64,000 nt of DNA from Desulfobacula sp. (GTDB taxonomy: Bacteria > Desulfobacterota > Desulfobacteria > Desulfobacterales > Desulfobacteraceae): contig VMSR01000302.1 in assembly GCA_013792075.1 (NCBI GenBank), forward strand, positions 75 to 64,074, written 5' to 3'. The notes beneath the pieces are model-generated. The model was not told the origin of the DNA and searched no databases. It saw only the letters and a list, made by a program, of their open reading frames with translations. Below, in pieces: positions 8,802 to 39,962 of the stretch. The position numbers and the translations under genes are program-made. Position 1 is the first letter of the stretch; each line of letters opens with the position of its first letter.

Positions 8802-8817
8802 TTCAATATTTGTGCCG
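8802..8817 (-). promoter_or_regulatory. sigma-54-type -24/-12 promoter-like element upstream of the BON/DUF3309/AI-2E genes
   Basis: The minus strand reads CGGCACAAATATTGAA, with GG and TTGA at the canonical GG-N10 spacing. The -12 has GA rather than GC. It lies about 90 nt upstream of the ATG at 8712. Confidence 0.5.
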
Positions 8818-8916
8818 GAGTCCTATCTGTCTTCATTATGTTTCTATTATATTGATTTTATTAGAAGAATTCATTTTAAAACAGTTTCAGACCCACTCCG
8901 TTCTTCAGATAAGAAA

Positions 8917-8947
8917 GGTCATATCCAAGCTTAGGTCGAATATGACC
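8917..8947. promoter_or_regulatory. candidate upstream activator sequence (UAS): GGTCATAT-N9-GGTCGAATATGACC
   Basis: Same 31-nt architecture as the sites at 11311-11341 and 35459-35489. It is 100-130 bp upstream of the -24/-12 element at 8802-8817. Confidence 0.5.
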
Positions 8948-9262
8948 TTATGAGGGGTGATCTATAATCTTTCGTATGGCCAGGGCATCTTCCGGGCTCG
9001 ACATGGCTTCAACCCGATAACCCAACTTCGCCATAATTTTAACTCCAGCTGTTTACACGCACGGATGTCACTGATCACGGTGCGGTATTGCGCTGATTTT
9101 GTGGTCTGATATTGAATGAAGGTGCTTTCCATCTTTCGCTCCCCTCAGTTCCTGCTGGGAGCGATGCAGTTCATCCTTCTGAAGTTCCAGCTTAATCTGG
9201 AATGTCCGGAGTTCATGAATTAATTTAATCGGGTCTTCAGTGGCCGAATGTGAAGTGACACC
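8948..9262 (-). pseudogene. degenerate fragments of a PAS-sensor / receiver-type signalling gene
   Basis: The minus strand at 9068-9262 reads ..ATEDPIKLIHELRTFQIKLELQKDELHRSQQELRGAK..*. This parallels LIHELQVHQIELKMQNNELRR at the N-terminus of the activator at 1-2036, but there is no in-frame start. The stretch at 8948-9034 reads MAKLGYRVEAMSSPEDALAIRKIIDHPS*, which is receiver-like. No intact ORF. Confidence 0.35.
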
Positions 9263-9293
9263 CTTTTTTTTGTTTCATTGATGTGGTTTTCCA

Positions 9294-10094
9294 CTAATTA
9301 AGGGTCATGGTATTCACAACACCCTTAACACCGCGGACGTCACCCACAAGCTTGGTGGCCAATTCCTTTTCTGCTGCATTTTTCACATTGCCTTGCAGCT
9401 TGACCACACCGTCATTTGTCGTAACTATTGTATTCAGAGCGCTGGTTGAGCGATGATACATCAAGGTTGTCTTGGCCAGAGCCGTTATGGATGCATCATC
9501 CAAGAATTCCATAACACTATCGATTTTTTTGGCCACTTTTGACTGATCCGGCTTCATTTCAGCAGGTTTCATTGCAGCAGGTGCGAGGGTTATCTCATTA
9601 ATAACATTTTTGACCCCTTCCACATCCATGGCGTATTCTTTAGCCAGGTCCTTCTGGGCTGTGCTGGATGCTTTACCGCGCAAGGTGACGGTACCGTCTC
9701 CTACCCAAACCTCAATGCCCATACCATCCATGTTTCGATGAAACGAAAGGGTGGCTTTTACTTTGGTCAAGATCCATGCATCCGAATAAACAGCAGGTGT
9801 TTCGCTTGTTAATCCAAGCTTGTTATTTACACTTTTCACACCCGGTAGATTTGCTGCCATATCATTGGCCAGTGATTTCTGGAATTCTTCGGAAACCGTC
9901 CCGGTCAATATGACAGCGCCGTCTTTTGACTGGATGTGGATGTTTTCATCCTTGAGGTAGTGCTTGAACACGTACGACTCTTTTGCGGATGATTCGATAC
10001 GGTCATCAAAATCAGATGCGTACAGAACGTTGCCGGGTACACACAAAAAGGCAACAAGGCATATCTGTAAGAAACGTTGCAGTATCTTTTTCAT
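9294..10094 (-). CDS. periplasmic 3xBON-domain protein (paralog)
   Basis: 266-aa ORF with signal peptide MKKILQRFLQICLVAFLCVPGNVLYA and BON repeats. Close paralog of 34220-35005. Confidence 0.85.
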   Translation of the reverse strand: MKKILQRFLQICLVAFLCVPGNVLYASDFDDRIESSAKESYVFKHYLKDENIHIQSKDGAVILTGTVSEEFQKSLANDMAANLPGVKSVNNKLGLTSETPAVYSDAWILTKVKATLSFHRNMDGMGIEVWVGDGTVTLRGKASSTAQKDLAKEYAMDVEGVKNVINEITLAPAAMKPAEMKPDQSKVAKKIDSVMEFLDDASITALAKTTLMYHRSTSALNTIVTTNDGVVKLQGNVKNAAEKELATKLVGDVRGVKGVVNTMTLN

Positions 10095-10179
10095 GGTGTT
10101 TTCTCTCTTTCATTCTTGATGGTGCGGTTCACGTACCGATATGATTGATGCGAATTTTTTGTACAAAAAGTAAATAGGA

Positions 10180-10572
10180 TTATTTCATATCTTCCTTATT
10201 CGATGAAAACATATTGACAATGGTCTTGACAATTTCGCCGATCATCAGAGCATAGTTTGCCAGATATTCAGCAGTCTCATTGATTGTCAATACCGTATCA
10301 GTGGTTTCATGAGAAATGGTTCTGATGGCTTCACCCGCCTCTCCAATACTGTTTTTGAATTCCTCACTGATTCTTGCGGTGTTCTCTGAAATTTCATAAA
10401 GATTGGGAATGATCCGGTTAAAATGATCTGTGTTTCTTTGAATCAGATCTGTGGCTTTTTTGATAAAACCATTCATGTTTCTCAGGGTCACAATGGCATA
10501 TCCACCCGCCACTGCAATTAAAATAAAAATGATAAATATGCCCAGCTCATTCAAGGTAATGGATCCTTGCAT
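10180..10572 (-). CDS. DUF948-like membrane-anchored coiled-coil protein (general-stress type)
   Basis: 130-aa ORF with an ATG after AAGGA. One N-terminal TM helix (LGIFIIFILIAVAGGYAIV) is followed by an all-helical tail. The family call is by resemblance only. Confidence 0.55.
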   Translation of the reverse strand: MQGSITLNELGIFIIFILIAVAGGYAIVTLRNMNGFIKKATDLIQRNTDHFNRIIPNLYEISENTARISEEFKNSIGEAGEAIRTISHETTDTVLTINETAEYLANYALMIGEIVKTIVNMFSSNKEDMK

Positions 10573-10595
10573 AAGAGTATCCTTATTTTTGTGTT

Positions 10596-10961
10596 CTATT
10601 TTTTCAAAGTTTCTTTTCCGGTTCCATCGCTGTTCTCCCCGGCTTTAGGAGAACGGGATTTTTTTTCTGTTGATGCGGCAAATATTCTGGCCTTGGTTGC
10701 GGCCACATTGTCTTTAAGATTATTGACGGTTTTGCTGGTTCGATCGGCAATGGCTTGCCGGGTTTCGCTGCCTGGTTTCGGGGCGAACAGGATTCCGGCT
10801 GCAACCCCTATTGCAGATCCGATACCAGCCCCTATTATCAGATTTCTGGTTCTGTTTCGGCGTAAATCTTTTGTTCGTGAGTACCTTATTTTTTTTACCT
10901 GATTTGCCAATTCATTAAAAATCATCATGTGTTCTCCTGCTTTGATAATATTCATTAACAT
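10596..10961 (-). CDS. YtxH-domain general stress protein
   Basis: The ATG at 10961 is preceded by GAAGGAG. The core IIGAGIGSAIGVAAGILFAPKPGSETRQAIADRT matches the YtxH signature (G-rich helix + FAPKSGxETR). Confidence 0.75.
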   Translation of the reverse strand: MLMNIIKAGEHMMIFNELANQVKKIRYSRTKDLRRNRTRNLIIGAGIGSAIGVAAGILFAPKPGSETRQAIADRTSKTVNNLKDNVAATKARIFAASTEKKSRSPKAGENSDGTGKETLKK

Positions 10962-10990
10962 CGTTTGCTCCTTCGTTTGAGCGGTTTTTA

Positions 10991-11140
10991 CTACAAAATT
11001 CTCCGGCCCTGGATGATTCGGATAATCACGGTGATAACAGCTACCACCAGAAGGATATGGATAAATCCTCCCATGGTATAACTGCTTACCAATCCCAGCA
11101 TCCAAAGAATTAACAGTACTATTGTAATTGTCCACAACAT
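10991..11140 (-). CDS. lmo0937-family small membrane protein
   Basis: Product from the ATG at 11140: MLWTITIVLLILWMLGLVSSYTMGGFIHILLVVAVITVIIRIIQGRRIL. This is the characteristic MLWTI...GGxIHILLV...GRR pattern. Confidence 0.75.
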   Translation of the reverse strand: MLWTITIVLLILWMLGLVSSYTMGGFIHILLVVAVITVIIRIIQGRRIL

Positions 11141-11194
11141 GGTTTTTCCCTTATCGATTGTATAATTATGGTTCACAAATTATGTATTATATAG

Positions 11195-11210
11195 TTCAAT
11201 TTACGTGCCA
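11195..11210 (-). promoter_or_regulatory. sigma-54-type -24/-12 promoter-like element upstream of lmo0937-ytxH-DUF948-BON
   Basis: The minus strand reads TGGCACGTAAATTGAA. It is identical to the element at 35344-35359 and lies about 55 nt upstream of the ATG at 11140. Confidence 0.55.
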
Positions 11211-11300
11211 GGTTTTCAATATCCGGCTTATGATGCCACCCTGCTTATCTGCAGGGGTCTTCTGCATAAAAAGACCTTCAAGCAGCTGCCGGAGAAAGCA

Positions 11301-11341
11301 GGTAGAATAAGGTCATATATAACCTTCGGCCATATGTGACC
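11301..11341. promoter_or_regulatory. candidate UAS: GGTAGAAT-N2-GGTCATAT-N9-GGCCATATGTGACC
   Basis: Located 91-131 bp upstream of the -24/-12 element at 11195-11210. Conserved in the duplicated copy at 35449-35489. Confidence 0.55.
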
Positions 11342-11435
11342 TGCTTTGTCAGGGTCGTTGGTTATCAGACTTGCACAGGTGAGCGTGATGCTCCCAGGAC
11401 CCGTGATTGAAGTGCCTGGAGGGTTAATGTTATTT

Positions 11436-11615
11436 TTATTTGCCCAGCACTGTTTTAATCTGACCGCGTTTTTCCTGAACTTTTCCTTGCGTTTTTTCGA
11501 TTTTTCCTTCGGCTTCCAGATCACGATTGTCTGTTATTTTTCCAACCGTCTCTTTTATCTTGCCTTTTACTTTGTGCAGTTTGCCTTCTGTCTTGTCCTG
11601 AGTGCCTGATTTCAT
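11436..11615 (-). CDS. CsbD-family general stress protein (59 aa, below the ORF-track cutoff)
   Basis: My own translation from the ATG at 11615 (RBS GGAGAAG) gives MKSGTQDKTEGKLHKVKGKIKETVGKITDNRDLEAEGKIEKTQGKVQEKRGQIKTVLGK*. This is the typical CsbD K/G-rich repeat pattern. The listed 98-aa ORF at 11228-11524 is an off-frame artefact. Confidence 0.8.
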   Translation of the reverse strand: MKSGTQDKTEGKLHKVKGKIKETVGKITDNRDLEAEGKIEKTQGKVQEKRGQIKTVLGK

Positions 11616-11704
11616 AATGCTTCTCCTGTTTTGAAATTATTTTTTTTTGCCATGGATATCGCTCGTTGGTTTGCCGCTATCCATGGTGATTTTCTTTCAT
11701 ATAT

Positions 11705-11720
11705 GGCAATCAGTGTGCCA
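11705..11720 (-). promoter_or_regulatory. sigma-54 -24/-12 promoter upstream of csbD-like gene
   Basis: The minus strand reads TGGCACACTGATTGCC, which fits the TGGCAC-N5-TTGC consensus exactly. It lies about 90 nt upstream of the ATG at 11615. Confidence 0.7.
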
Positions 11721-11823: not shown

Positions 11824-11855
11824 GGTCATATATACTCAAAAGGTCATATCTGGCC
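11824..11855. promoter_or_regulatory. candidate UAS: GGTCATAT-N10-GGTCATATCTGGCC, between divergent promoter-like elements
   Basis: It is 104-135 bp from the minus-strand promoter at 11705-11720. It is also 92-123 bp from the plus-strand TGGCAC element at 11947-11962. Confidence 0.5.
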
Positions 11856-13214: not shown

Positions 13215-16200
13215 ATGTCGGCTGAGCATCAAAATTCCATTATCGGTTTTATCTGGCGGCCTGAGGAGATCACCCCGGCGGTGGTTCAGATGGTTCAGCG
13301 AACAGGGAGCCATGCTGTCTTCGATTTTTCCATGATAAAGGGAGCAGACGATCTGTATTCCTGCCTGCGGGAAACAGACCCTGATGATCTTGTCAGGGAT
13401 ATTAAAATTTCCGCCACGGCCTTTACGGATCCGTCTCTGGTTCGGGTATTAAAGAAAACAGGGGTCCACGCCCTCTGGGTAGAGTGCCCCCTTGAGGTTT
13501 CTGACGGAGATACCTCCTTGTTTATAGAAAAGCTTAAGGAAATTTCCAAAAGTTATTGCTGCTTTCCCATCACCGGGGACACCGATCTTGTGGCAAAAAT
13601 ATTAAAGGATGACCCGGGCATCGGGCGAATCGTTCTGAAAGGATGTGAGGCCGCAGGATTCGTGGGCCGTGAGACGACCATGGCGCTCTATTCAATGGCC
13701 AGAGAAATGCTCAGGGCTTCTTCAACGCCTTGTGATATTCTCATCTGGGGCGGTGTCTTTATCCCTGAGGCAGCAGCGGCATTTCTGTCAACCGGGGCGG
13801 CCGGGATCATCTTTGAGAGTGTCCATTGGTTGACCGATGGGGTTAAAATTGAAGATTCCCAGCGAGAGTGTCTCCGCCGGATCCATCCGGATTCCACTGA
13901 TCTGGTCGGCCTGGACGTGCAGGTTCCCTGCCGTCTGTTCAACAAGGGAAATTCCCTCGCATTCAAGGAAATCAAGGCTTACGAGGACTCGCTCTGCGGT
14001 GCAACGATCCTGGCCCAAGACCGCCACGGTTTTGCAAACCGGGTGAATGCTAAGGCCGTTCACCCCCTGAAGAGCCTTTTTAGCCGGGACGAAGTCATTT
14101 TTCTGGGTGTGGAAGCGGCTTTTGCCGAGTCCTTTATTAACCGTTTTGGAACCCAGACCGAGGAAGCGGTGCGAGCGTTCATGGACGAAATTCATGGGTT
14201 ATGCAACCTGGCCGAAGAAAAAAAGAAGTGTTTTCTGGACAGTCCTGTGGCCAAAGAGATGGGAATCCTATACCCCTTTATTCAGGGCGCCATGTCCTGG
14301 ATCACGGATGTTCCTGAGTTTGCCCTGGGGGTCGCCGATGCCGGTGGATTGCCCACCATCGCCCTTGGCCTGATGGACGCTGAAATGCTTGACAAAAAGC
14401 TTGGATGTCTGCCGAAGATCATGGGCGAGCGCCCATATGCCGTGAATGTGGTCGCTTTGGCGGAAAATCCTTTCAGGGGATTGCATCTGGCCTGGATAAA
14501 AAAGCATAGACCCCGTTTTGCAGTGATTGCAGGCGGTGATGTTTCCGTCATCGGTGAATTGATGGAAAGCGGCATTGATGTCATTTATATCGCTCCGGAT
14601 GAAGCACTATTGAAGCTCGCCCTCAAAGCAGGCGTCCGATATGTGATCTGCGAGGGGTATGAGGCCGGGGGCCATGTGGGACCGCATAGCACGCTTACCC
14701 TTGCACAAATGGTGCTGGATCTGAAACAATCCACCCCATCCCTGTTCAAAAACTGTCGCATAATCCTTGCCGGGGGAATTTTTAACCGGGAAACCGCGTT
14801 TATGGCAGCCATGCTCGGAGCCGACGCCATCCAGATGGGTACCGCCTATCTGGCCACACGGGAAATTGTTGACACAGGCGCCTTGGCACCCCTTTATCAG
14901 CAGATGATCCTGAAATCACTTCCGGCAGGAACCGTTGTTTCCGGCCGGAACACCGGCCTTAGGGTAAGGTCCCTGAGAACCCCGGTGGTGGAAGTTATGT
15001 TATCCCTGGAAAGGGAGTTTGCCGCAGGACACCGGGACGAGACCTCTTTCAGGGTGAGTATGGAAAAAATGGCGGCCGGAAGCCTTTTCACTGCTGCAAG
15101 GGGTATGGACAGGCCGGGAGAGGCACTTCTAGATGAAAAAACCTGTCTGGAACGCGGACAATTCATGAGCGGGGCATGTGCCGGGCTCATCCGTGACGTC
15201 GATAATCTGAAGTCCTTTCACCGTGAACTGGTCCAGGGCCCTCTTCATATGCATCAGCCGGTTGCAGGCGCCTTGGAAACACCATTGAAAATACCGGTCG
15301 CTGGGGTCAAAAATACACTGAATCAAGTCATACCCAAAAGAGAGAATCATGACAGAATTGCCATCACCGGCATGAGCATCGTTAATACCCTGGGGGAAAG
15401 CCCGGAAGAAGTCTGGGCTGCAAGCCTGGCCATGAAGAGCGGAATCACTCTGGTTCCGCCGTCACGGTGGGATCATGCCCTGTATTATGACGCCCGTCCC
15501 CATACTCCAGACAAGACGTATTGCAAAGTGGGGGCTTTTCTGGACTTTCGTGTCGACCGCAATGAACTTAACATTCCTCCCCATGATTTCAGGAGTATGA
15601 CCGAGGCCACACGGATTTCCATGTGGCTTGCGGACAGGGCCATCCGGGAATCCGGTATTCTGACATCGGACATCCCGCGGGAGAGAATAGCCGTCCTCAT
15701 GTCCCAGAATTCGGGAGAAGCGGCAGGGACGCTTCCCAATATTATTATCAGGGCATACGTTAACGACATCCTGGCCGGAATCAAACAGGCCGTTGACCTC
15801 ACACCGGGTCAACACAGAGCCATCGAACAGGAAATAAAATCCGGGCGTATGGCCCCGGACGATACCACCCTGTTGGGCCGGCTCAACTGCGCTGCCGCCG
15901 GTTTTATCTGCAAACAGTATGGGTTCATGGGGCCGAGCTATGCTGTATCCGCAGCCTGCGCAACCTCACTTGTAGCACTTCACTGCGCCATCCAGATGAT
16001 CCAAAACGGCATCATAGACGCAGCCGTCGTGGGAGGGGGCGAGGATACGCTCAGCCATCTGCATTTTCTGGAATTTTCCGCCCTGGACGCACTTTACGGG
16101 TTGTCCGGGCAGGAAAAATCTGCCCATGAGACCTCTTGCCCTTTTGATGCACAAAGAGACGGGATGGTCCTTGGCGAAGGCGGGGCAATGATTGTTATTG

Positions 16201-19200
16201 AGCGGGAAAGCCTTGCCCGGGCAAGAGGGGCCCTTGTTCATGCCTTTGTGACCGGCATGGGCGCCAGCAATAACCATCTGGGGATGGTGGAGTCTTCCAA
16301 TGTCTCCCAGCAGATGGCCATTCGCGCCTCTTTTAAGGGAACATCCTATGGACCGGATGCCGTGGATCTTGTGGAATGCCATGCCACGAGCACCCGCCAG
16401 GGAGACCTGGAGGAGGTCCGTGCCCTGAAGGCGATCTTTCCTTCCTCCAAGCGCACCGTGCTCAGTGCATTTAAATCCCAGATCGGACACACACTGGGTG
16501 CCTCGGGTATCAGTAGCCTTATTCGGGGGGTGAAGGCCATGAAGGCTAAAATTTTACCGCTCACCCTTAATTACAGTCATCCGGACCCGGAAATCAATCT
16601 GGAAAAATCAGGTCTTATCATCTCCCCTGCGCCGCTGGATTGGAAAAGCCGCACCGGGGAACCCAGAAGGCTTGAAGTCAATGCGTTTGGTTTTGGCGGT
16701 TCCAATTATGTGGTCCAGGTGGAACAATCTATGGATGAAGTGGATATGGTCATGGTTTCCCATAAACCGCAAACGGTATCGGCCCATGAAGATTTGAAAG
16801 TTGTGCCCCTTGCCCTTGTCTTCCCCGGACAGGGGGCACAGTATGGCGGTATGGGACAAGAACTCTATGCGTCTTTTCCCATTATTAAAGAATGGATGGA
16901 TCGGGCTGCAGCCGTTGCAGACTTTGATCTCCTTGGCCTGATGTTCCATGATCAAGAGGAAAATCTTCAGAAGACCCGATGGCAGCAGCCTGCCATGTTT
17001 GCCATGGAAAATGCCATGGCCCGATATCTCATCAGCCTCGGCATCCGCCCGGTGGCCATGGCCGGTCACAGTCTGGGCGAATTGACTGCCTTGTGTCTGG
17101 CCGGTGTCTATTCCCCGGAGGATGGGTTTCGAATCGTGAACAAGCGGGCCCTGTGCATGGACAAAGCCGCTTCCGAGAATATCGATCCCGGTGTCATGGC
17201 AGCCACGGACGCGCCTCTGGATCTGCTGAAAAAAATGATCCAGGATTGCAATGATATCCACATCGGTAATATCAATTCACCCAAGCAGATTGTTTTAAGC
17301 GGCAATACACAAGAGATGAGGGATTTTAGCAAAAAATTGAAGGAACAGGGTCACCGGACCACCCTTCTGCGTGTCAGCATGGCCTTCCACTCTCCTGCCA
17401 TGAAGGTCATCCATGATGAACTTGCAGCATACATTGCCGCCATTGAATTTCATTCCCCGCAGATTCCGGTCATCTCCAACACGACCCAGATACCGTATCC
17501 GTCAGACCCTGATGAGATCAAAAAAATCCTCATGGCCCACCTGGAATCCCCCGTCCATTGGATGGATAATGTCCAGAGTCTTTGGAATACCTATGGGGCA
17601 AGGCTTTTTGTTGAGGTGGGACCGGGTGACGTATTGAGCAATCTCATCGCAGACACGCTTCCCGGATCAGCGTGTATCCAGACATGCCTTCGGTCCTCAG
17701 AGGGGTTGACCTTCAAGGCTGCCCTTGCCCAGCTCTTTGCCCAAGGGCAGCTTAAAGTTAAAGGAGAACCAAAGGGTATTCTTCTTCCTGCACTCAAAAA
17801 AACTCAGGAACCTCTTCGGATCATACCGGCATTGGCCTTACGGCCGCAAACATCCCTGCATCCGGATGAAAATCCCATGGAACAGATCATTCAAAGGGAA
17901 ATCAACCGGTTCGTCATGGAGAATTCCGGCCAGTTTCTTAAGTCCAACATTTTGGAAGCCATCCGCCATGAACTGAACCCGAAATTCAAAGAAGGCGACC
18001 TGTCAAGTGTTATCAAATCCATGTTCGGAGGGTTTGAGCCTCCTGAAGGATTGAAACTGCTTGCTCCTGTATCTGTTGAACCATCCGGCCCTGCTGCTGG
18101 GGGTGAAGATATCATGGAGAAACTTATTCGAATTATTATGGATGCGACCGGATATAATAGAGACGAGATCCAGCCCGACATGGATCTTCGGAAGGACCTT
18201 TCCATTCGATCCAGCCGTCTGCCCATCATCATGGATGCAGCAGAACACCAATTCGGGATCACCATTGAACTGGAGGATTTTATAGATGTCCGTACCGTGA
18301 ATGACATTGCCCTGGGGATCTCCAAAATAACTGCCCGGCAGGAAAACAACAGACGGCAAGAGTCCTCAGAGGCACTTGACCCGGACACCCTGCCAGATGA
18401 ACACCTGAAATCCTCAACAGATGCGGCAAGCTTAAATCGGCTCGTATTCGCGGATGCCGCAATAGAGTTGGGCGCTTTAATCCCCATGGAATTGAGTCCG
18501 GGCGAATCCGTCCTTTTTCTCTCTTCTGACCAGGATGACAAGATTGCCCAACGCACAGGGGACATTCTCAGGACAGACTACCGGGTTAAGACGTTTCCAA
18601 TGGGAGTCCTGCAGGAAAGCCTGGATTCCGGCAAAACGGGTCACGACATCCGAACCGAAAAAGGGGCCTTGCAGGCTGCAGATAAAATTGCAACCCTGCT
18701 TCCTGTTTCCGGGATGGTCATCACCCTTGGTCAGGACGGGCCGATAATATCAAGCAGCATGGCGGATGTTTCCCAGCTCCTTAAGGGATTCTTTGTCCTG
18801 CTTAAGGCATTTCTTGAATCACCGGCTAAAAAATTTATCCTGTTGATTCATTCCGGAGAGGATATTGAAACGCCTGTCCGGTTGCTGACCCAAGGAATGC
18901 TCGGATTATTCTTAAGCGCGGCCCAGGAATACCCATCCATCCAGTTTAGAACACTGGCAATCGAGAAAGATACCGATCTTCAAAAAGCCGTGCACAATGC
19001 TCTGGATAGAGGTTGTAAACTAGTGGAGATGATTCATCAAGATGGAAAGCTTCTCACGTCAGAGGGAGGTTTAGCCCCATCGATTTTCAGGGATTCATCA
19101 GGTCTGAACCTGAATCCTGGGAGTGTTATCGTGATGTCCGGGGGCGCAACCGGGATCAGCGCCTATCTTGCCCGCGGTCTTGCTCCTTTCATGCCACGTC

Positions 19201-20888
19201 TTGTCTTTCTGGGGAGGACGCGTCTCGATCTGAAAGGTGACCCGGCAAAACCGCTTGCCGGTCCTTCATTTTCAGCGTCGGCAGCCATCGGGCCCAGGGC
19301 AGGGGAGATTGCCCAGACCCTGGCGGATTTACACGCAGCAGGAATTGAGGCGACCTATCATACCTGCGATGTTACCGATCCTGAAGCCGTCCAGGCCATC
19401 CTGGGAGAAGTGATCGGCCGTTACGGCAAAATTGACGGGATCATTCACAGTGCCGGTGTCCTCAGGGACGGTCCCTTAAGCCGCATGACCCTGGATGATT
19501 TTTCCATGGTCACGGACGTCAAATTTCTGGGCGCCTGGAACCTCTACTCAGCGGCCAAGACTGCCGGCTTGAAGTTTTTTGCAGGCCTTTCCTCAGTCGC
19601 TGCAATCCAGGGGAGTCCCGGACAGGCAAATTATGTTGCCGCCAACCGGATGATGTCTGCCTTGCTCAGACATCTGAGCCTGAAAAACAGCACCATCCGC
19701 TTCAAGGCCTTGATGCTTCCTCCTGTTGAGGGAGCCGGCATGGCGGATGATCCGGAAATCCAGGCCCTGCTCAAGCAAAAAGGGGTTGCATATATTCATG
19801 TGAATGAGCTTGCAGGACTCATCTGCCGGGAACTTTTTGTCGCCCCGGCCGACGACAATTGGGTCATGTTCATGAAAAAACTGCCGTGTGTGAGGACGGT
19901 ATTGCTTAACGACAAAACCCGTCCCTTACCTTGCGGAGAGCTGGATTCCGGTCTTGTGTCCTTCAAACCTGAGGACTTTCCCATGATCGAAAAGATTTTA
20001 ACCCTGGACCTTTGTCAGGAAAAACTGGAAGCCTTCCGGTCTTTTTCTCTGGAAAAGGATCTCTGGATCACGGATCACAGGCCCTTCAAGTTCATCAAGC
20101 ATCCCATTGTCTCAGCCACCATGGTTCTGGAGACATTCATGGAAGCTGCCCGGATACTGTATCCCCACCTTCAGGTGCGGGGCGTTCGCAAGATCCGGCT
20201 CATGGACATGATTGAATGCCGGCCGGGGGTTCCGCGGCCGGCCAGCATCTCCTGCCGCAGGGCCGACAACAGCCTTGAAGCGGTATTGTGCGATATGTCC
20301 CTGTCAGCACAGGAGATTTCTCCGGCCGGGAGATTGACCGACCACTTTGCCCTGCAGTGCAGCGGTCAGGTGATCCTTGATGGCGGAGGAGAAACGCCCA
20401 AGAAGGGATTCCTGGATTTTCCCATCCGGCAGGACGAACTCAGGACCCGGCCCATGAATCGCAAAAAAGTATTGAAATGGTACAAAGACCGCAGCGGTCT
20501 GGGAGGACGGTATCGCGTCATAGAGTTTCTTGATGGTACGGGTCCGGGTGTCATACGGGGCCGGACGATTTATCCTGAGACATGTGACTTTGCAAATCTT
20601 TTGAACGTAAAATACCAATACTCCCCCTACCTTTTCGAGGCGCTTTTGCAATTGGTGTGCTGTCACATTGCTGTGACAGATCCATCAGAGCCCAGATCCA
20701 TGATTCCCCTGGAGATCGGGGAGATGCGGTGTTTCAGAAAAGTCCGGGCAGGAGAAAAGATAACGCTGGAGGCCAGATTGCGAACACAGGACGACGAAGT
20801 GCTCACCTGGGACACAAGGGGACTTGATGATCAGGGCGAAACCCTCATGCAGATTTTCGGGTTGCAGATGAAATGGATTTCAGATTGA
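13215..20888 (+). CDS. type I FAS/PKS-like megasynthase: degenerate ER-like + FabK/PfaD-type ER + KS + AT + ACP + KR + DH
   Basis: 2557-aa ORF. ER (about 14240-15200): ILYPFIQGAMSWITD, ICEGYEAGGHVG, ILAGGIF..GADAIQMGTAYLAT. Degenerate N-terminal copy (13215 to about 14200): LKGCEAAGFVG, ILIWGGVF. KS (about 15351-16730): SAACATSL (Cys 15957-15959), CHATSTRQGD, SQIGHTLGASG. AT (about 16810-17700): FPGQGAQYGGMG, GHSLGE (Ser 17070-17072), MAFHS. ACP (about 18105-18330): DLSIRSSRLPIIM. KR (about 18900-19800): SGGATGISAYLARGL, GQANYVAAN. DH hotdog (about 19960-20885): ITDHRPFKFIKHP. No thioesterase or reductase release domain. Confidence 0.9.
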   Translation: MSAEHQNSIIGFIWRPEEITPAVVQMVQRTGSHAVFDFSMIKGADDLYSCLRETDPDDLVRDIKISATAFTDPSLVRVLKKTGVHALWVECPLEVSDGDTSLFIEKLKEISKSYCCFPITGDTDLVAKILKDDPGIGRIVLKGCEAAGFVGRETTMALYSMAREMLRASSTPCDILIWGGVFIPEAAAAFLSTGAAGIIFESVHWLTDGVKIEDSQRECLRRIHPDSTDLVGLDVQVPCRLFNKGNSLAFKEIKAYEDSLCGATILAQDRHGFANRVNAKAVHPLKSLFSRDEVIFLGVEAAFAESFINRFGTQTEEAVRAFMDEIHGLCNLAEEKKKCFLDSPVAKEMGILYPFIQGAMSWITDVPEFALGVADAGGLPTIALGLMDAEMLDKKLGCLPKIMGERPYAVNVVALAENPFRGLHLAWIKKHRPRFAVIAGGDVSVIGELMESGIDVIYIAPDEALLKLALKAGVRYVICEGYEAGGHVGPHSTLTLAQMVLDLKQSTPSLFKNCRIILAGGIFNRETAFMAAMLGADAIQMGTAYLATREIVDTGALAPLYQQMILKSLPAGTVVSGRNTGLRVRSLRTPVVEVMLSLEREFAAGHRDETSFRVSMEKMAAGSLFTAARGMDRPGEALLDEKTCLERGQFMSGACAGLIRDVDNLKSFHRELVQGPLHMHQPVAGALETPLKIPVAGVKNTLNQVIPKRENHDRIAITGMSIVNTLGESPEEVWAASLAMKSGITLVPPSRWDHALYYDARPHTPDKTYCKVGAFLDFRVDRNELNIPPHDFRSMTEATRISMWLADRAIRESGILTSDIPRERIAVLMSQNSGEAAGTLPNIIIRAYVNDILAGIKQAVDLTPGQHRAIEQEIKSGRMAPDDTTLLGRLNCAAAGFICKQYGFMGPSYAVSAACATSLVALHCAIQMIQNGIIDAAVVGGGEDTLSHLHFLEFSALDALYGLSGQEKSAHETSCPFDAQRDGMVLGEGGAMIVIERESLARARGALVHAFVTGMGASNNHLGMVESSNVSQQMAIRASFKGTSYGPDAVDLVECHATSTRQGDLEEVRALKAIFPSSKRTVLSAFKSQIGHTLGASGISSLIRGVKAMKAKILPLTLNYSHPDPEINLEKSGLIISPAPLDWKSRTGEPRRLEVNAFGFGGSNYVVQVEQSMDEVDMVMVSHKPQTVSAHEDLKVVPLALVFPGQGAQYGGMGQELYASFPIIKEWMDRAAAVADFDLLGLMFHDQEENLQKTRWQQPAMFAMENAMARYLISLGIRPVAMAGHSLGELTALCLAGVYSPEDGFRIVNKRALCMDKAASENIDPGVMAATDAPLDLLKKMIQDCNDIHIGNINSPKQIVLSGNTQEMRDFSKKLKEQGHRTTLLRVSMAFHSPAMKVIHDELAAYIAAIEFHSPQIPVISNTTQIPYPSDPDEIKKILMAHLESPVHWMDNVQSLWNTYGARLFVEVGPGDVLSNLIADTLPGSACIQTCLRSSEGLTFKAALAQLFAQGQLKVKGEPKGILLPALKKTQEPLRIIPALALRPQTSLHPDENPMEQIIQREINRFVMENSGQFLKSNILEAIRHELNPKFKEGDLSSVIKSMFGGFEPPEGLKLLAPVSVEPSGPAAGGEDIMEKLIRIIMDATGYNRDEIQPDMDLRKDLSIRSSRLPIIMDAAEHQFGITIELEDFIDVRTVNDIALGISKITARQENNRRQESSEALDPDTLPDEHLKSSTDAASLNRLVFADAAIELGALIPMELSPGESVLFLSSDQDDKIAQRTGDILRTDYRVKTFPMGVLQESLDSGKTGHDIRTEKGALQAADKIATLLPVSGMVITLGQDGPIISSSMADVSQLLKGFFVLLKAFLESPAKKFILLIHSGEDIETPVRLLTQGMLGLFLSAAQEYPSIQFRTLAIEKDTDLQKAVHNALDRGCKLVEMIHQDGKLLTSEGGLAPSIFRDSSGLNLNPGSVIVMSGGATGISAYLARGLAPFMPRLVFLGRTRLDLKGDPAKPLAGPSFSASAAIGPRAGEIAQTLADLHAAGIEATYHTCDVTDPEAVQAILGEVIGRYGKIDGIIHSAGVLRDGPLSRMTLDDFSMVTDVKFLGAWNLYSAAKTAGLKFFAGLSSVAAIQGSPGQANYVAANRMMSALLRHLSLKNSTIRFKALMLPPVEGAGMADDPEIQALLKQKGVAYIHVNELAGLICRELFVAPADDNWVMFMKKLPCVRTVLLNDKTRPLPCGELDSGLVSFKPEDFPMIEKILTLDLCQEKLEAFRSFSLEKDLWITDHRPFKFIKHPIVSATMVLETFMEAARILYPHLQVRGVRKIRLMDMIECRPGVPRPASISCRRADNSLEAVLCDMSLSAQEISPAGRLTDHFALQCSGQVILDGGGETPKKGFLDFPIRQDELRTRPMNRKKVLKWYKDRSGLGGRYRVIEFLDGTGPGVIRGRTIYPETCDFANLLNVKYQYSPYLFEALLQLVCCHIAVTDPSEPRSMIPLEIGEMRCFRKVRAGEKITLEARLRTQDDEVLTWDTRGLDDQGETLMQIFGLQMKWISD

Positions 20889-34219: not shown

Positions 34220-35005
34220 TCAATTAATCGTCATGTCGTTGGAAATGCTTTTTACGCCATGAACATCGTTCGCCAGTTTGCCGGCCAGATCCTTTTCAGC
34301 CGCATTGTTCACGATGCCTTCCAACTTGACCATGCCGGCATTTGTCGACACGATGATGTTAAGTGCGTTGGTTGAGCGATGATACAACAAGGTTGTCTTT
34401 ACCAGAGCCGTAATGGAGGCATCATCCATGGATTCTATGACAGTATCTGCTTTTCTGGCCGTCGTTAACTTGTCCGGCTTCATTTCTATAGGCTCGACAA
34501 TTATCTCATTGATAACATTTAAGACCCCTTCCACATCCATGGCGTATTCAGTCGTCAGGTCCTTTTGGGCTGTGCTGGATGCTTTACCGCGCAAGGTGAC
34601 AGCCCCATTTTCTGATAGAACTTGGGTTCCGATACCATTTACGTTTCGATGAAATAAAAGGGTGGCATTTATTTGGGTTATAATCCATGCATCCGAATGA
34701 ACAACAGGGAGTTCACCTTTTGTTCCAAGGAAGTTATCCAAGCTTTTAACACCTGGCAGATTTAGCACCATATCATTGGCCAGTAATTTTTGATATTCTT
34801 CGGAAACCTTCCCGGTCAAGGTGACAGCGCCGCTTTTTGACTGGATGTGGATGTTTTCATCCTTTAAGTAACGTTTGAATACATACGAATTTTTTATGGA
34901 TGATTCAATACGGTCATCAAAATCAGATGCGTACAGAACTTTGCCGGGTACACACAAAAAGGCAACAAGGCATATCTGTAACAAACCTTGCCGTATTTTT
35001 TTCAT
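34220..35005 (-). CDS. periplasmic 3xBON-domain protein (paralog of 9294-10094)
   Basis: 261-aa ORF. The signal peptide and most N-terminal positions are identical by eye to the 9294-10094 product. Confidence 0.85.
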   Translation of the reverse strand: MKKIRQGLLQICLVAFLCVPGKVLYASDFDDRIESSIKNSYVFKRYLKDENIHIQSKSGAVTLTGKVSEEYQKLLANDMVLNLPGVKSLDNFLGTKGELPVVHSDAWIITQINATLLFHRNVNGIGTQVLSENGAVTLRGKASSTAQKDLTTEYAMDVEGVLNVINEIIVEPIEMKPDKLTTARKADTVIESMDDASITALVKTTLLYHRSTNALNIIVSTNAGMVKLEGIVNNAAEKDLAGKLANDVHGVKSISNDMTIN

Positions 35006-35140
35006 GGTGTTTTCTCGCTTTCATTCTTGCGGTAATCTCTGAAATTTTATAAATCGTTGGAAACGATCTGATTAAAACCATTCATGTTTTTCCTGTCTCA
35101 TCGCTGTTCTCCCCGGTTTTATGAGAACGGGATTTTTTTT

Positions 35141-35290
35141 CTACAAAATTCTTCGGCCGGAAATGATTCGGATAAGCACGGTGATAACAGCAATCACCAG
35201 AAGGATATGGATAAATCCTCCCATGGTATAGCTGCTCACGAATCCCAGCACCCAAAGAATTACCAGCACTACTGCAATAGTCCACAACAT
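35141..35290 (-). CDS. lmo0937-family small membrane protein (second copy)
   Basis: Product from the ATG at 35290: MLWTIAVVLVILWVLGFVSSYTMGGFIHILLVIAVITVLIRIISGRRIL. Confidence 0.75.
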   Translation of the reverse strand: MLWTIAVVLVILWVLGFVSSYTMGGFIHILLVIAVITVLIRIISGRRIL

Positions 35291-35343: not shown

Positions 35344-35359
35344 TTCAATTTACGTGCCA
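35344..35359 (-). promoter_or_regulatory. sigma-54-type -24/-12 promoter-like element (copy 2)
   Basis: The minus strand reads TGGCACGTAAATTGAA, identical to 11195-11210. Confidence 0.55.
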
Positions 35360-35448: not shown

Positions 35449-35489
35449 GGTCGAATCAGGTCACATACAGCCTTTGGTCATATGTGACC
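35449..35489. promoter_or_regulatory. candidate UAS: GGTCGAAT-N2-GGTCACAT-N9-GGTCATATGTGACC
   Basis: Located 90-130 bp upstream of 35344-35359. Same three-site layout as 11301-11341. Confidence 0.55.
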
Positions 35490-36611: not shown

Positions 36612-36612
36612 C

Positions 36613-37644
36613 TTACATTCTCCAGCGTTTTTTCATGAGCAGATATGACATGAAAAAGGTTAATAATCCGACAAAAAACAAATAGATCCATGCCGGAAAC
36701 AAGGTTGATATAGTCCTGTCATCCAGCAGGATTGAGCGGATGGATTCAAAAAGAGGATATGACGGCAAAAAAGGAGCCACTGTTGATAATTTTTGTGAAA
36801 ACTCGGATAAGGCAGAAGGAAGAAGGTGGGGCAGATAGAAAATAACGCCCAGGGTTCTGGCGCCGGCCTGACTTTTACATAAAAAACCCAGGAAAATTCC
36901 ATAGGCACTAAAACAAAAACTGCCGACGCCGATAAATGCGACATAACTTGCGACATTTCCAAAAGAGAATCTTCCCATCAGATGGAGAAACAGGACAGCC
37001 ATGAAGATTAAAATCATGCCCAAAAATAATTTGGCCACAAGCCATTCAATTTCCCGCATGGGCGTCTGCAAAAGCGCAAGCAGTAATTTTTTTTCCTTTT
37101 CTTCGGCAATTTGCGCAGGCATGATGATGAAGCTTACCAGCATGACCAGCATGAGGATCCATGTGGGCAAGGTTTGTCTTTGAATTCCACCTTTCTGAAG
37201 CGGTTTGATATCGGAAATCCAGTTGATGCCGGTTCCTTCGATTGCTTTTTGTAACGCTGAAAAGCTCTCTACTATTTGAAGGGACAATACCGATTCTTTT
37301 TTTAAAACAACCAGAACCAGACTGATATTTTCTTTTTCAGGCCGTAACAGCAAACCATCGATTTTTTTTTCTTTTAACCATGTATTGCCTTGTTCTTCAC
37401 TTGAAACCAATACAATCGAAAATAGTGCATCGGCGGATTGAATAGCTTCAACAATAACAGGAGGATATTGTTGTGATTGAATCAGTCCGATGTTGATTTT
37501 TTTAATATCAACACCGGCTTCATCTACCAACGTCAAAGAGATATAAACAAAAAATGGAATGAAAAGAATCAAAAAGATGGATTTATTCTTAAAGGCAATG
37601 GCCAAATCATTCACTGTTAATGTAATGATATTTCTTATCATCAT
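36613..37644 (-). CDS. ABC-2 type transporter permease
   Basis: 343-aa ORF with an N-terminal TM helix, a large loop and 5 C-terminal TM helices. It overlaps the ATPase gene stop. Confidence 0.75.
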   Translation of the reverse strand: MMIRNIITLTVNDLAIAFKNKSIFLILFIPFFVYISLTLVDEAGVDIKKINIGLIQSQQYPPVIVEAIQSADALFSIVLVSSEEQGNTWLKEKKIDGLLLRPEKENISLVLVVLKKESVLSLQIVESFSALQKAIEGTGINWISDIKPLQKGGIQRQTLPTWILMLVMLVSFIIMPAQIAEEKEKKLLLALLQTPMREIEWLVAKLFLGMILIFMAVLFLHLMGRFSFGNVASYVAFIGVGSFCFSAYGIFLGFLCKSQAGARTLGVIFYLPHLLPSALSEFSQKLSTVAPFLPSYPLFESIRSILLDDRTISTLFPAWIYLFFVGLLTFFMSYLLMKKRWRM

Positions 37645-38321
37645 AGGTAAAGCTTCTCATGAATGTCTGATTGAAAATATGTTTCGGGCGATCCATCAAA
37701 AACCAGAACGCCCTGATGAAGTACAACAATTCGTGTGGCCAGGGTTTTTATCTCTTCTGGCCGATGGGAAGTGAAAATAATTGTTTTCCCGGAAGAATGA
37801 AACGCTTTGAGCAGCCTGTAAATCTCTTTTGTCATCTCAAAGTCTATCCCTGAAGTCGGTTCATCAAACAAAAGAACGGACGGATCTGCCAGAAGGGATC
37901 GCCCGATGCTCACCCTTTGCCGTAATCCTTTTGATAAAACCTGTATCCTGTTCGTGCGGAAAGGCAACAGATTGAATGCCTTTAAAATTTCTTCAATTCT
38001 TGAGAAAGGAACCTGAAACAGACGGGCAAATAGTTTGAGATTATCTTCAACGGTAAAAAAATCAAACAGATTGGGCGTTTCCGGAACAAAACCGATTTTC
38101 CGCACAATTGCCAATCTGTTTTTGAGGTCGATACCGTCCACAAAAACCTGACCGCTGTCAGGGATGAGCCAGCCGGCCAAAAGTTTTAATAAGGTGGATT
38201 TGCCCGCACCATTATGCCCGATAAGGGCAATCAGTTCCCCTTGTTTCACCTCAAGTTGAAACGGCAGCAGCCCTCTTTTTTCCTTATATGTTTTTGAAAG
38301 ATTCTGAATCTTAATCAGCAT
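37641..38321 (-). CDS. ABC transporter ATP-binding protein
   Basis: Walker A GHNGAGKST, signature LSKGLRQR, Walker B LLFDEPTSGID. Confidence 0.9.
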   Translation of the reverse strand: MLIKIQNLSKTYKEKRGLLPFQLEVKQGELIALIGHNGAGKSTLLKLLAGWLIPDSGQVFVDGIDLKNRLAIVRKIGFVPETPNLFDFFTVEDNLKLFARLFQVPFSRIEEILKAFNLLPFRTNRIQVLSKGLRQRVSIGRSLLADPSVLLFDEPTSGIDFEMTKEIYRLLKAFHSSGKTIIFTSHRPEEIKTLATRIVVLHQGVLVFDGSPETYFQSDIHEKLYL

Positions 38322-38426
38322 AAAACGATTCTTTTTTTATCCGCATAAATGTTTGATGACTTTGACCGGAAATTCCTGTCAAAGTCATCGCTTAAAATGT
38401 AAAGCAAGGTTTCTTTAATAAAACGC

Positions 38427-38501
38427 TTATGTCCGCTGAACCAAATAAACAATCGCGAACACCAAAGCCACTACAACCAGAACGCCGATAACAAATCCCA
38501 T
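38427..38501 (-). CDS. possible 24-aa hydrophobic micro-protein
   Basis: My own translation from the ATG at 38501, preceded by AAAGGAGAAAC: MGFVIGVLVVVALVFAIVYLVQRT*. No family is recognised. Confidence 0.25.
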   Translation of the reverse strand: MGFVIGVLVVVALVFAIVYLVQRT

Positions 38502-38607
38502 TTTGTTTCTCCTTTAAAAGTAATAATTTATGCTCTCTATGTATACAGGTACCAAAGATTGACAACTGAGTAAGGCAGGACGCAAATAGCGTGCTAGTCT
38601 CGTCTTA

Positions 38608-39141
38608 TCAATCAATCTGCCTGCCTATATCCTCAAAGGCATCCACGACCATCCCCGTTCCAACCGCAATCAGCAGGATATCCTGGGCCACGCGCACGAA
38701 ACGGTGCAGTGGCGGTGGCGGCCCCAATTGCACAAGAATGGTTGGCGGAAGCTCATAGAAAACGACTTCTGTGGGAAGCCGTCGGCCTTTGCTCCATTTT
38801 TTTGCATGGCCGGGAGGTATACAGCGATTGCCTTTCTTAGCAAGGCCCGGCGGACAATGTCCCTTCCGAAATTGTCCGGAATAATAATTGTGGATGAACA
38901 TCTGCTTTTGTTCACTGAAGTGCCCGCCCCTCTGGGGGCTATGTTTATTTTTCTCGTAAGATTTCCCATGATCAGAATTCCGATTGTCTTTGTGGTTTCC
39001 ACTCATTTTTTCCTGTTTGTGGTGTTGGCCCTTTTTCCCGCCACCCTCTGCCGATTTTCCTGCGAGTGCCGTGTTGGTTGAACATATTCCGGTAAAGATA
39101 AGCGCCAGTGTAAGGCATATCTGAAACATAAACCGCTGCAT
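38608..39141 (-). CDS. RcnB/CigR-like periplasmic protein
   Basis: The ATG at 39141 follows GGGAG. Signal peptide MQRFMFQICLTLALIFTGICSTNTALA, then a basic H/K-rich linker. The C-terminus PPGLAKKG..PPGHAKKW...LPP....HRFVRVAQDILLIAVGTGMVVDAF is typical of the RcnB family. Confidence 0.6.
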   Translation of the reverse strand: MQRFMFQICLTLALIFTGICSTNTALAGKSAEGGGKKGQHHKQEKMSGNHKDNRNSDHGKSYEKNKHSPQRGGHFSEQKQMFIHNYYSGQFRKGHCPPGLAKKGNRCIPPGHAKKWSKGRRLPTEVVFYELPPTILVQLGPPPPLHRFVRVAQDILLIAVGTGMVVDAFEDIGRQID

Positions 39142-39332
39142 GATTTTGACTCCCATTCAAAAGATTAAAAATAAACTTAAAGGCTTTTTATGCCGCCATC
39201 TGACAAAAGGGTCGTATTTATCCATAGGGCCATATTTGACCTCGCTTTCAGAATAAAATCCGGTTGTCAGAAATTGATCATTTACGCAATGGGCTCTTTG
39301 ATCTTATCAAAGGCCAGAATCTATCTGGAAAT

Positions 39333-39692
39333 TCAGGATACATTAACGATATATTCGTCATATGGGACTCCTTGGGTCCTGACCGCTTCAATGGCCGCCA
39401 TTCCCTGGAGATGGGAAACCGTGTAAATCATTATGTTCAGCGGTTTGCTTAAAAGGGGCTTTGTTCCCAGCAGAACCCCGAACCTGTGGGATTTGATATG
39501 CAGATCCAGGTCTTCCCGGGTTTGCCACTCCTGAATCAGGCAAAGGCTGTTTTTGTCCTGGATATCACAAAAAACAGAACAGCCTTTGCAACCTTTTTCC
39601 CGGCCTACAGGTTCGATCAGCGAAACAAGGGTCTGGGTGATCTCCAACTGCTTATCCGCAAGAACATTCAGGATAATTTTGACTACGATCAT
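39333..39692 (-). CDS. antibiotic-biosynthesis-monooxygenase (ABM/Dabb) fold protein
   Basis: The ATG at 39692 follows AAGGGGA. The pattern MIVVKIILNV...REKGCKGCSVFCDIQDKNSLCLIQEWQTREDLDLHIKSHRF matches ABM domains (..GC..y......f...E.W.s...l..H..s..f). Confidence 0.6.
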   Translation of the reverse strand: MIVVKIILNVLADKQLEITQTLVSLIEPVGREKGCKGCSVFCDIQDKNSLCLIQEWQTREDLDLHIKSHRFGVLLGTKPLLSKPLNIMIYTVSHLQGMAAIEAVRTQGVPYDEYIVNVS

Positions 39693-39814
39693 TGTGATCC
39701 CCTTTTTTATGCCTGGCAGTATGGACGGATCCAGGATTTTGACCATAGCCTGATTTTGACTACGACCTTAATTTTTGTTTTACCCGATGCAGCGTTTAAT
39801 CAAAAAGAGATTAG

Positions 39815-39830
39815 AGCAACCTTCATGCCA
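39815..39830 (-). promoter_or_regulatory. sigma-54 -24/-12 promoter upstream of the ABM-like gene
   Basis: The minus strand reads TGGCATGAAGGTTGCT (TGGCAT-N5-TTGCT). Confidence 0.7.
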
Positions 39831-39931
39831 AAGCCTGCTCCTGTTTTTGATGACACAGCTTTTCCTGCTGATTTAATGAAAGAATCGGTCCTGGAAAAAA
39901 AGAGAGGAGATTAAAAAAAATGCAGAATAAA

Positions 39932-39962
39932 GGCCAAATATGGCCATTGGTCATATTCGACC
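39932..39962. promoter_or_regulatory. candidate UAS: two adjacent 14-mers, GGCCAAATATGGCC and GGTCATATTCGACC
   Basis: Located 102-132 bp upstream of the promoter at 39815-39830. It lies immediately after the stop codon of the activator gene at 39969-41450. Confidence 0.55.

Follow-up and report, generated by a model that had tools for sequence, protein, structure and literature searches.

What controls a set of dispersed genes if the same palindromic arrays recur, at nearly the same distance, upstream of the same kind of -24/-12 element? The question is raised by a 64,000-nucleotide stretch of Desulfobacula sp. contig VMSR01000302.1 (assembly GCA_013792075.1, positions 75 to 64,074; hereafter the window), in which an original prediction had pointed out five minus-strand sigma-54 promoter-like elements, each preceded by such an array, and had proposed that they make up the regulon of a bacterial enhancer-binding protein (bEBP), that is, of a sigma-54 activator. 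On the basis of sequence analysis of the window and of related genomes, we consider it highly probable that these are five sigma-54 promoters (four independent ones and one duplicate) served by tandem-palindrome enhancers of an activator with PAS, AAA+, and helix-turn-helix (HTH) domains, and that they drive stress-protein genes.

Tandem palindromes at a fixed distance from sigma-54-type promoters

Direct reading of the minus strand of the window recovered the five -24/-12 elements (P1 to P5; Table 1) exactly where they had been placed, along with the six 14-mers reported upstream of them (at 8934, 11328, 11842, 35476, 39932, and 39949). The sigma-54 consensus is YTGGCACG-N4-TTGCW, with the GG and GC doublets 10 nucleotides (nt) apart; the GG-N10 spacing and TGGCA(C/T) are present in all five promoters, and the -12 doublet is GC in P3 and P5 and GA in P1, P2, and P4. 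The arrays had been described as one palindrome plus loose half-sites. The repeated palindrome is indeed their building block, but each enhancer consists of two full 14-bp palindromes with the consensus GGTCATATATGACC, separated by a spacer of 3 to 4 nt (17 to 18 bp from center to center), and the more degenerate 14-mer is usually the promoter-proximal copy. The distance between enhancer and promoter is constant, as claimed, although its measured range is tighter than the ~90 to 135 bp first given: 99 to 103 nt separate the proximal 14-mer from the first base of the -24 element (T; C in P1). By our arithmetic, with the GG set as -25/-24, the palindrome centers fall near -133 and -151, and the proximal palindrome lies ~115 bp, or ~11 helical turns, from the promoter center. 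All of the enhancer sites in the window are intergenic.

The degenerate palindrome GGYCRWATNYGRCC has 11 strand matches at 7 places in the window versus 0.12 expected, and TGGCAY-N5-TTGM has 4 matches versus 1.3 expected. A composite of a palindrome-like 14-mer, a gap of 95 to 106 nt, and YGGCAY-N5-TTG occurs 5 times versus a mean of 0.01 in 300 dinucleotide-preserving shuffles, which bears out the earlier argument that the joint conservation of promoter, spacing, and upstream activating sequence is hard to ascribe to chance. In a scan with a weight matrix built only from the half-sites that our pattern scan of other genomes (see below) left unspecified, the window's twelve 14-mers rank among the top scores, with eleven between 13.6 and 21.2 and the weakest (8917-8930) at 10.1. 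Only two intruders exceed a score of 13, namely, 5780-5793 (14.7) and 48361-48374 (14.0); both are single 14-mers that have neither a tandem partner nor a sigma-54 promoter, and we treat them as chance occurrences.

The spacers of P1, P2/P4, P3, and P5 cannot be aligned with each other, the matching being limited to the enhancer, an A/T-rich bend site, and the promoter, and to this extent the loci are nonhomologous, as had been stated. This does not hold for P2 and P4, the upstream regions of which (from 11195 and 35344, respectively) align over their whole length with ~85% identity by our count of invariant columns. Judged by this alignment, the two units are paralogues, so that the independent units in the window number four, with one duplicate, rather than five.

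Recurrence of the unit in other genomes

We scanned one genome per GTDB species with the pattern ATATGRCC-N{9,10}-ATNNGRCC-N{90,115}-TGGCAY-N5-TTG. The enhancer-spacer-promoter unit recurs at at least 119 loci of these species-representative genomes, against ~8 matches expected by chance according to our own rough estimate (21.5 effective specified bases, 62 gap combinations, and 1.2e12 positions); the counts given below refer to the 125 listed matches of the pattern unless stated otherwise. Nearly all of these come from Thermodesulfobacteriota, namely, Desulfobacterales, Desulfobulbales, Desulfatiglandales, Syntrophaceae, and Desulfovibrionales. Three outsiders (L013, L019, and L116) were treated as chance matches, having neither palindromic left halves nor known target genes. 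While a gap of 90 to 115 nt was allowed, it measures 98 to 103 nt in 120 of the 125 matches, with a mode of 100 to 101 nt. The left half-sites read GGTCAT though the pattern leaves them unspecified (in site A, G 81%, G 83%, T 67%, and C 62%), and the promoter consensus extends to cCTGGCAcaAagaTTGaa.

The kinds of genes downstream recur as well. The first called gene codes for an ABM-domain protein at 17 matches, a BON protein at 10, a CsbD protein at 6, and a B12/radical-SAM protein at 4, with DUF5670, LTXXQ, DUF308, Sod_Fe, PRC, DUF3309, and RcnB among the further first genes; OmpA/VWA, SPFH, and AhpC appear among the second genes, as does the activator in a few genomes. Within 3 kb of the listed loci, tblastn retrieved ABM at 36, BON at ~30, B12/radical-SAM at 27, CsbD at 13, DUF5670 at 10, and DUF3309 at 7; at least one of these families is present at 79 of 120 loci. 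Genes for superoxide dismutase, AhpC, and the hybrid-cluster protein are found near units in some genomes.

The activator next to the last array as the candidate binder

The last array had been reported to adjoin the stop codon of a PAS/sigma-54 activator gene, and enhancer 5 indeed lies 6 nt from that stop codon (39969). The encoded protein is the sole sigma-54 activator in the window. Its Sigma54_activat domain (PF00158, E = 8e-71, residues 189 to 355) shows the Walker A/B motifs (GETGTGKE and LFLDEIGE) and a GAFTGS loop and matches the solved structures of NifA, ZraR, NtrC, FleQ, and PspF; its Fis-type HTH corresponds to HTH_8 (PF02954, residues 444 to 488). The ...TGS variant of the GAFTGA loop has been listed among the variants expected to retain function (PMC4641369). 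The protein scores below all 27 matching NCBIfam equivalog cutoffs, the matches being limited to its AAA+/HTH part (best scores versus cutoffs in bits: FhlA, 407.6/830; NifA, 381/529; NorR, 365/476); it does not count as an equivalog in any of the named NCBIfam bEBP groups, such as FhlA, NifA, NorR, NtrC, ZraR, PspF, or AtoC. A search for a solved relative of its PAS domain found none, and a search with the PAS domain alone gave mainly fragments and stand-alone PAS proteins.

Full-length orthologues with 75 to 100% identity are found in Desulfobacula, Desulfotignum, Desulfobacter, and many metagenome-assembled genomes (MAGs), and orthologues of at least 75% identity occur across Desulfobacterales. 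In 120 orthologues, the DNA-recognition helix, ILGLNRSTLRARMRKL, shows an invariance of at least 95%, in parallel with that of the motif. An orthologue (55 to 89% identity, C-terminal HTH included) is encoded within 8 kb of the unit (10 kb for L001 and L002) at 41 of the 125 matches, and in ~30 of these 41 the enhancer follows the stop codon of the orthologue on the same strand, at a distance of 11 to 290 nt. Since a genome has several units but only one or two activators, this linkage is far above expectation. We examined the loci of three activator orthologues. In Desulfobacula toluolica and a 7.85-Mb "Desulfobacterium" MAG, the activator gene is directly followed by a tandem ...ATATGACC-N10-A(A/T)ATAAGACC, with TGGCA(C/T)-N5-TTGC ~100 nt past the tandem; in Desulfotignum balticum, the tandem-plus-promoter unit precedes an ABM gene located ~7.5 kb ahead of the activator, the stop codon of which is followed by only a palindrome without a promoter. 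ABM, BON, SPFH, OmpA, YtxH, and DUF948 genes are found near these three loci. Taken together, the recurrence of the unit, its linkage to the activator, the presence of a single bEBP in the window, and the invariant recognition helix support the view that the arrays mark a bEBP regulon with the adjacent activator as the candidate binder.

The region upstream of the activator gene has no enhancer and shows a sigma-70-like TTGACA-17-TATTGT; autoregulation within the window was rejected, as this is the only promoter found there. In a few other genomes, the activator is located downstream of an enhancer-promoter unit. The rpoN gene is absent from the 64-kb window.

Two further proteins share features of the activator's sensor region. 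A 982-aa fusion of a CheB methylesterase, a CheR methyltransferase, PAS_10, and PAS is encoded downstream of the P1 operon (2686-5634, minus strand), and the PAS domain of the activator is weakly similar to its PAS_10 region (E = 0.045). Similar CheB-CheR-PAS genes adjoin enhancer/activator units in L003, L005, L020, L051, L076, and L082, and given this recurrence beside units of the regulon in six or more other genomes, they may belong to the signal input. In the metagenomic protein P0180 (231 aa), an activator-like PAS domain (69% identical) is followed directly by the C-terminal half of an ABM domain. We rejected P0180 as a true PAS-ABM fusion, as it enters the ABM domain midway and looks like a deletion within an activator/ABM gene pair, which underlines the conserved adjacency of the two genes.

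The -12 element and the putative bend site

Three GA doublets at -12 had been flagged as unusual. They are present, but within the regulon they are the majority state: in 121 nonidentical related promoters from the listed matches, TTG is followed by A 70 times, by C 39 times, by T 7 times, and by G 5 times, so that TTGA accounts for 58%. The A prevails in the ABM, BON, CsbD, and DUF5670 classes alike, and this predominance suggests that GA is the normal state of the regulon. As a comparison bearing on whether TTGA belongs to the regulon or to the lineage at large, among sigma-54 promoters lacking an enhancer, taken from 0.98 Mb, A was found in 12, C in 12, G in 6, and T in 4, though these are few and several look like degenerate members. 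In an in vitro promoter library from Pseudomonas putida, both TTGAAT and TTGCAT were recovered as -12 motifs, with TTGCAT alone in the most strongly transcribed templates (PMC11997794), which suggests that TTGA is plausibly functional but weaker.

Between enhancer and promoter, P1 and P3 carry AATCAATAT(A/G)AT(A/G) 39 to 41 nt before the -24 element, reminiscent of a site for integration host factor (IHF); the site is weak or absent in P2, P4, and P5. Among the listed matches, the bend-site consensus is an A/T tract followed by AAATCAAnATGATA, and ATCAA, which the scanning pattern does not specify, stands exactly 39 to 40 nt before TGGCA in 39 of 125. The IHF pattern (WATCAANNNNTTR plus an A/T tract) was found in a relaxed form in 37 of the listed units and in a strict form in 13.

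Units and target genes in the window

The coordinates of the units and their genes are collected in Table 1. The genes of the P2 operon are presumably cotranscribed, to judge from their common strand and short gaps, and the AI-2E family transporter gene probably belongs to the P1 operon. The P4 operon appears to be a copy of the P2 operon minus YtxH and DUF948; the deletion is suggested by the out-of-frame open reading frame (ORF) 35082-35285, which ends in ...KKSRSHKTGENSDETGKT, resembling the YtxH C terminus of the P2 operon.

Table 1. Predicted regulatory elements and genes of the regulon in the window (gap, nt between the proximal 14-mer and the start of the -24 element)
Feature	Positions	Strand	Details
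P1 promoter	8802-8817	-	CGGCACAAATATTGAA
Enhancer 1	8917-8947	-	GGTCATATTCGACC + TAA + GCTTGGATATGACC; gap 99
IHF-like site of P1	8845-8857	-	AATCAATATAATA; ATCAA 39 nt before the -24 element
P1 operon	6415-8712	-	Triple-BON, 7924-8712; DUF3309, 7665-7889 (likely start about 7823); AI-2E family transporter, 6415-7635 (Pfam, ORFs)
P2 promoter	11195-11210	-	TGGCACGTAAATTGAA
Enhancer 2	11311-11341	-	GGTCACATATGGCC + GAA + GGTTATATATGACC; gap 100
P2 operon	9294-11140	-	DUF5670, 10991-11140; YtxH, 10596-10961; DUF948-like, 10180-10572; triple-BON, 9294-10094
P3 promoter	11705-11720	-	TGGCACACTGATTGCC
Enhancer 3	11824-11855	-	GGCCAGATATGACC + TTTT + GAGTATATATGACC; gap 103
IHF-like site between enhancer 3 and P3	11750-11762	-	AATCAATATGATG
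CsbD-like gene, P3 target	11436-11615	-	Pfam
P4 promoter	35344-35359	-	TGGCACGTAAATTGAA; paralogue of P2
Enhancer 4	35459-35489	-	GGTCACATATGACC + AAA + GGCTGTATGTGACC; gap 99
P4 operon	34220-35290	-	DUF5670, 35141-35290; triple-BON, 34220-35005 (ORFs, translations)
P5 promoter	39815-39830	-	TGGCATGAAGGTTGCT
Enhancer 5	39932-39962	-	GGTCGAATATGACC (39949-39962) + AAT + GGCCATATTTGGCC (39932-39945); gap 101
ABM-domain gene, P5 target	39333-39692	-	Pfam; likely start MIVVKIIL at 39692, ORF reaches 39746
P6, orphan tandem site	39210-39241	-	GGTCAAATATGGCC + CTAT + GGATAAATACGACC
RcnB/CigR-like secreted protein gene	38608-39156	-	Pfam, NCBIfam
Activator (bEBP), 493 aa	39969-41450	-	PAS + sigma-54 AAA+ (GAFTGS loop) + Fis-type HTH (Pfam)

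A sixth tandem site, P6, had been overlooked in the original prediction. The ATG of the RcnB/CigR-like gene is ~70 nt away, and the regulon membership of that gene in the window is uncertain; in L057, RcnB is a direct first-gene target with the standard architecture. The nearest promoter look-alike, TGGCGGCATAAAAAGC, was ruled out by its 11-nt spacing, and the closest relative, L070, has no such site in its syntenic spacer. P6 adjoins a stretch of ~15 codons left over from the B12/radical-SAM gene found after ABM elsewhere; we count P6 as an orphan, possibly itself a relic beside what remains of the deleted gene.

The short ORF 39278-39391 (minus strand), which overlaps the end of the ABM gene, contains LMYPEFPDRFWPL, matching the N terminus (...LLIYPEFPDTFWSF) of the B12-binding radical-SAM/DUF4070 gene that follows ABM at 27 other listed loci. 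The ORF looks like a relic of a deleted gene of this kind, and the same relic is seen in L070.

Alternative explanations

Several observations weigh against the reading of these units as the activator's stress regulon. The sequences show the architecture of the units, their conservation, their linkage to the activator gene, and the families of their targets; from these we infer sigma-54 dependence, binding, a part played by IHF, gating by a signal, and the physiological role. The stress role draws on the names of families that are mostly domains of unknown function. P6 has no GG-N10-G(C/A) at 95 to 106 nt on either strand, the IHF-like ATCAA is found in only about one-third of the listed units, and most units have at -12 the TTGA that is weaker than TTGC in the P. 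putida library (PMC11997794). There is also the matter of the binder. Activator versions of 589 to 627 aa (P0015 to P0018, P0020, and P0068) add an N-terminal receiver domain and are 77 to 86% identical to the activator over the remainder (85% for the 622-aa proteins), and two activator paralogues share one cluster in L028 and L030; with 64 kb of the genome in view, the binder in this organism could be a close paralogue encoded outside the window. That another regulator, whether a paralogous bEBP such as a receiver-domain version or an unrelated protein encoded elsewhere, binds the motif is nevertheless unlikely in our view, given that the adjacency of activator orthologue and enhancer recurs in ~30 independent genomes and that no other DNA-binding protein recurs beside the listed units. 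A different binder is possible only as a close paralogue; if this shared the invariant recognition helix, it would recognize the identical motif, and the mechanism would not change. Given the receiver-domain versions, a two-component phosphorelay probably feeds into this regulon in some organisms.

The tandem palindromes might instead be mainly intrinsic terminators or insulators of the upstream gene, their proximity to promoters merely reflecting shared intergenic DNA. As RNA, the two palindromes can pair into one long hairpin, with -16 to -22 kcal/mol for P1, P2, P4, and P5 and a mean minimum free energy of -14.8 kcal/mol over the 125 listed units; a T run (at least 5 T in 8 nt) follows the hairpin in 68 of these, a simple terminator scan flags 8949-8915, and many units come directly after the activator stop codon. 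Yet terminators conserve structure rather than sequence, so that such a role leaves unexplained why the same 14-mer is kept across more than 100 species and unrelated loci and why its distance to the -24 element is constant within ~3 nt. Moreover, enhancer 3 lies in a divergent intergenic region without a codirectional upstream gene and folds weakly (-4.4 kcal/mol). We therefore regard a primarily terminating function as very improbable, while the enhancer may additionally serve to terminate or insulate the gene preceding it, which is often that of the activator. Least credible of all is that the units are copies of a mobile element carrying a promoter, resembling repetitive extragenic palindromes or miniature inverted-repeat transposable elements and spread by duplication. 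P2 and P4 are duplicates along their entire upstream region, as such spread would produce, but terminal repeats and target duplications are absent, and the units stand upstream of orthologous genes across genomes; the nonhomologous spacers of P1, P2/P4, P3, and P5 exclude this origin.

Predicted mechanism and comparison with known systems

For the preferred reading, control by the PAS-AAA+-HTH activator, the predicted mechanism is that of a canonical bEBP acting with sigma-54. Activator dimers would bind the two palindromes centered at ~-151 and ~-133, and the A/T-rich IHF-like bend site near -62 would aid DNA looping, such that the assembled AAA+ ring could contact sigma-54 RNA polymerase at -24/-12 and open the promoter at the expense of ATP. 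The N-terminal PAS domain is predicted to gate the activator in response to a signal, and in the window, the activator gene would itself be driven by the sigma-70-like promoter. The genes switched on would be those of small envelope/stress-protection proteins (BON/OsmY-like, CsbD, YtxH, DUF948, DUF5670, DUF3309, and ABM), to which the target set elsewhere would add the B12/radical-SAM protein, SPFH, OmpA, superoxide dismutase, AhpC, and the hybrid-cluster protein. In Desulfobacterales, Desulfobulbales, and relatives, the unit thus appears to act as a conserved stress regulon.

The architecture is that of classical bEBP units (NtrC-glnAp2, NifA-nifH, ZraR, DctD, and XylR-Pu), which likewise combine an AAA+ activator with a Fis-type HTH, palindromes 100 to 150 bp from the -24/-12 element, an IHF-like bend in between, and two adjacent dimer sites. 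NifA sites read TGT-N10-ACA and NtrC sites TGCACC-N5-GGTGCA; here, the half-site is GGTCAT and the palindromes are 17 to 18 bp apart. Also unlike the classical bEBPs, the activator has a single PAS sensor without a solved relative and falls short of every equivalog cutoff, and its predicted targets are small stress proteins rather than nitrogen, metal, or carbon genes. Another sigma-54 system for comparison is PspF-psp (phage shock), which responds to envelope stress and makes use of tandem upstream sites and IHF. The AAA+ domain of PspF is homologous to that of the activator, but PspF has no sensor domain and is restrained by PspA, whereas here a PAS domain is fused and PspA is absent; psp is one operon, whereas the targets here are many and dispersed.

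In gene content, the regulon recalls those of alternative sigma factors. The sigma-B regulon of Bacillus and Listeria includes csbD and ytxG/ytxH (DUF948/YtxH), with lmo0937 (DUF5670) in Listeria; the sigma-S regulon of Escherichia coli includes osmY (BON), yjbJ (CsbD), and hdeD (DUF308); and the EcfG regulon of Alphaproteobacteria includes PRC-barrel and CsbD proteins. All of these families appear as targets here too, under sigma-54 and an ATP-dependent enhancer-binding activator rather than through sigma replacement by partner switching or proteolysis. This likeness, together with the oxidative and nitrosative genes, suggests a general or envelope/oxidative stress response. A bolder extension, which we offer tentatively and with some doubt, is that the activator and sigma-54 form the master switch of the general stress response in Desulfobacterales, Desulfobulbales, and relatives, a fourth and enhancer-dependent control of the same protective kit (OsmY/BON, CsbD, YtxH, DUF948, and lmo0937-like proteins), in which the weak TTGA and the terminator-like enhancer would serve for tuning and insulation.

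A published point of comparison is the sigma-54 regulome of Desulfovibrio vulgaris Hildenborough (Kazakov et al. 2015, PMC4641369), from the same phylum and with the same comparative approach to bEBP motifs, although it covers Desulfovibrionales, whereas the regulon described here is mainly one of Desulfobacterales and Desulfobulbales. That organism has many single-component PAS-type bEBPs and some stress regulons, but none of its 37 listed regulators has BON, CsbD, YtxH, or ABM targets, and DVU3305, labeled as general stress response, is a two-component response regulator with other targets (PMC4641369). A description of the motif or regulon was not found in that regulome table or in full-text searches of part of the literature. 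The regulon and its general-stress-like content thus appear to be undescribed; what is new is the motif, the geometry, and the regulon assigned to this activator family, plus the kind of genes controlled.

Other features of the window

A 177-aa ORF (5782-6315, minus strand) between the genes for the AI-2E transporter and the CheB-CheR protein aligns to no more than the final ~90 positions of the glycosyl hydrolase 94 catalytic domain and to a C-terminal part of GH65; it probably represents a pseudogene or a fragment of a gene. Just past the promoter region of CsbD, positions 13215-20888 (plus strand) code for a 2,557-aa multidomain synthase with enoyl reductase/NMO-like, ketosynthase, acyltransferase, ketoreductase, and dehydratase domains, resembling a subunit of a polyunsaturated fatty acid or polyketide-type fatty acid synthase. 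The dnaA (53075-54559) and dnaB (57874-59253) genes are less than 5 kb apart and are accompanied by genes for an FAD-linked oxidase and a GTPase (GTP-bdg_N/MMR_HSR1 domains; HflX-like by our reading). Given dnaA and dnaB, the window may lie near a replication origin.

Implications

The Desulfobacteria have the largest known sets of sigma-54 activators, with up to 69 per genome (PMC12316311), and hardly any of these have been assigned a motif or regulon. One very conserved activator, with orthologues at least 75% identical across genera, would now gain a target set along with a motif and a precisely defined promoter architecture. With cultured strains, Desulfobacula toluolica Tol2 among them, it becomes possible to ask which stress is sensed by the PAS domain and whether the target proteins protect strict anaerobes against oxygen, salt, or starvation. 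The regulon also comprises more than 100 natural sigma-54 promoters, in the majority of which A replaces the canonical C at -12, and these may serve as a data set for how the -12 element tunes activator dependence.

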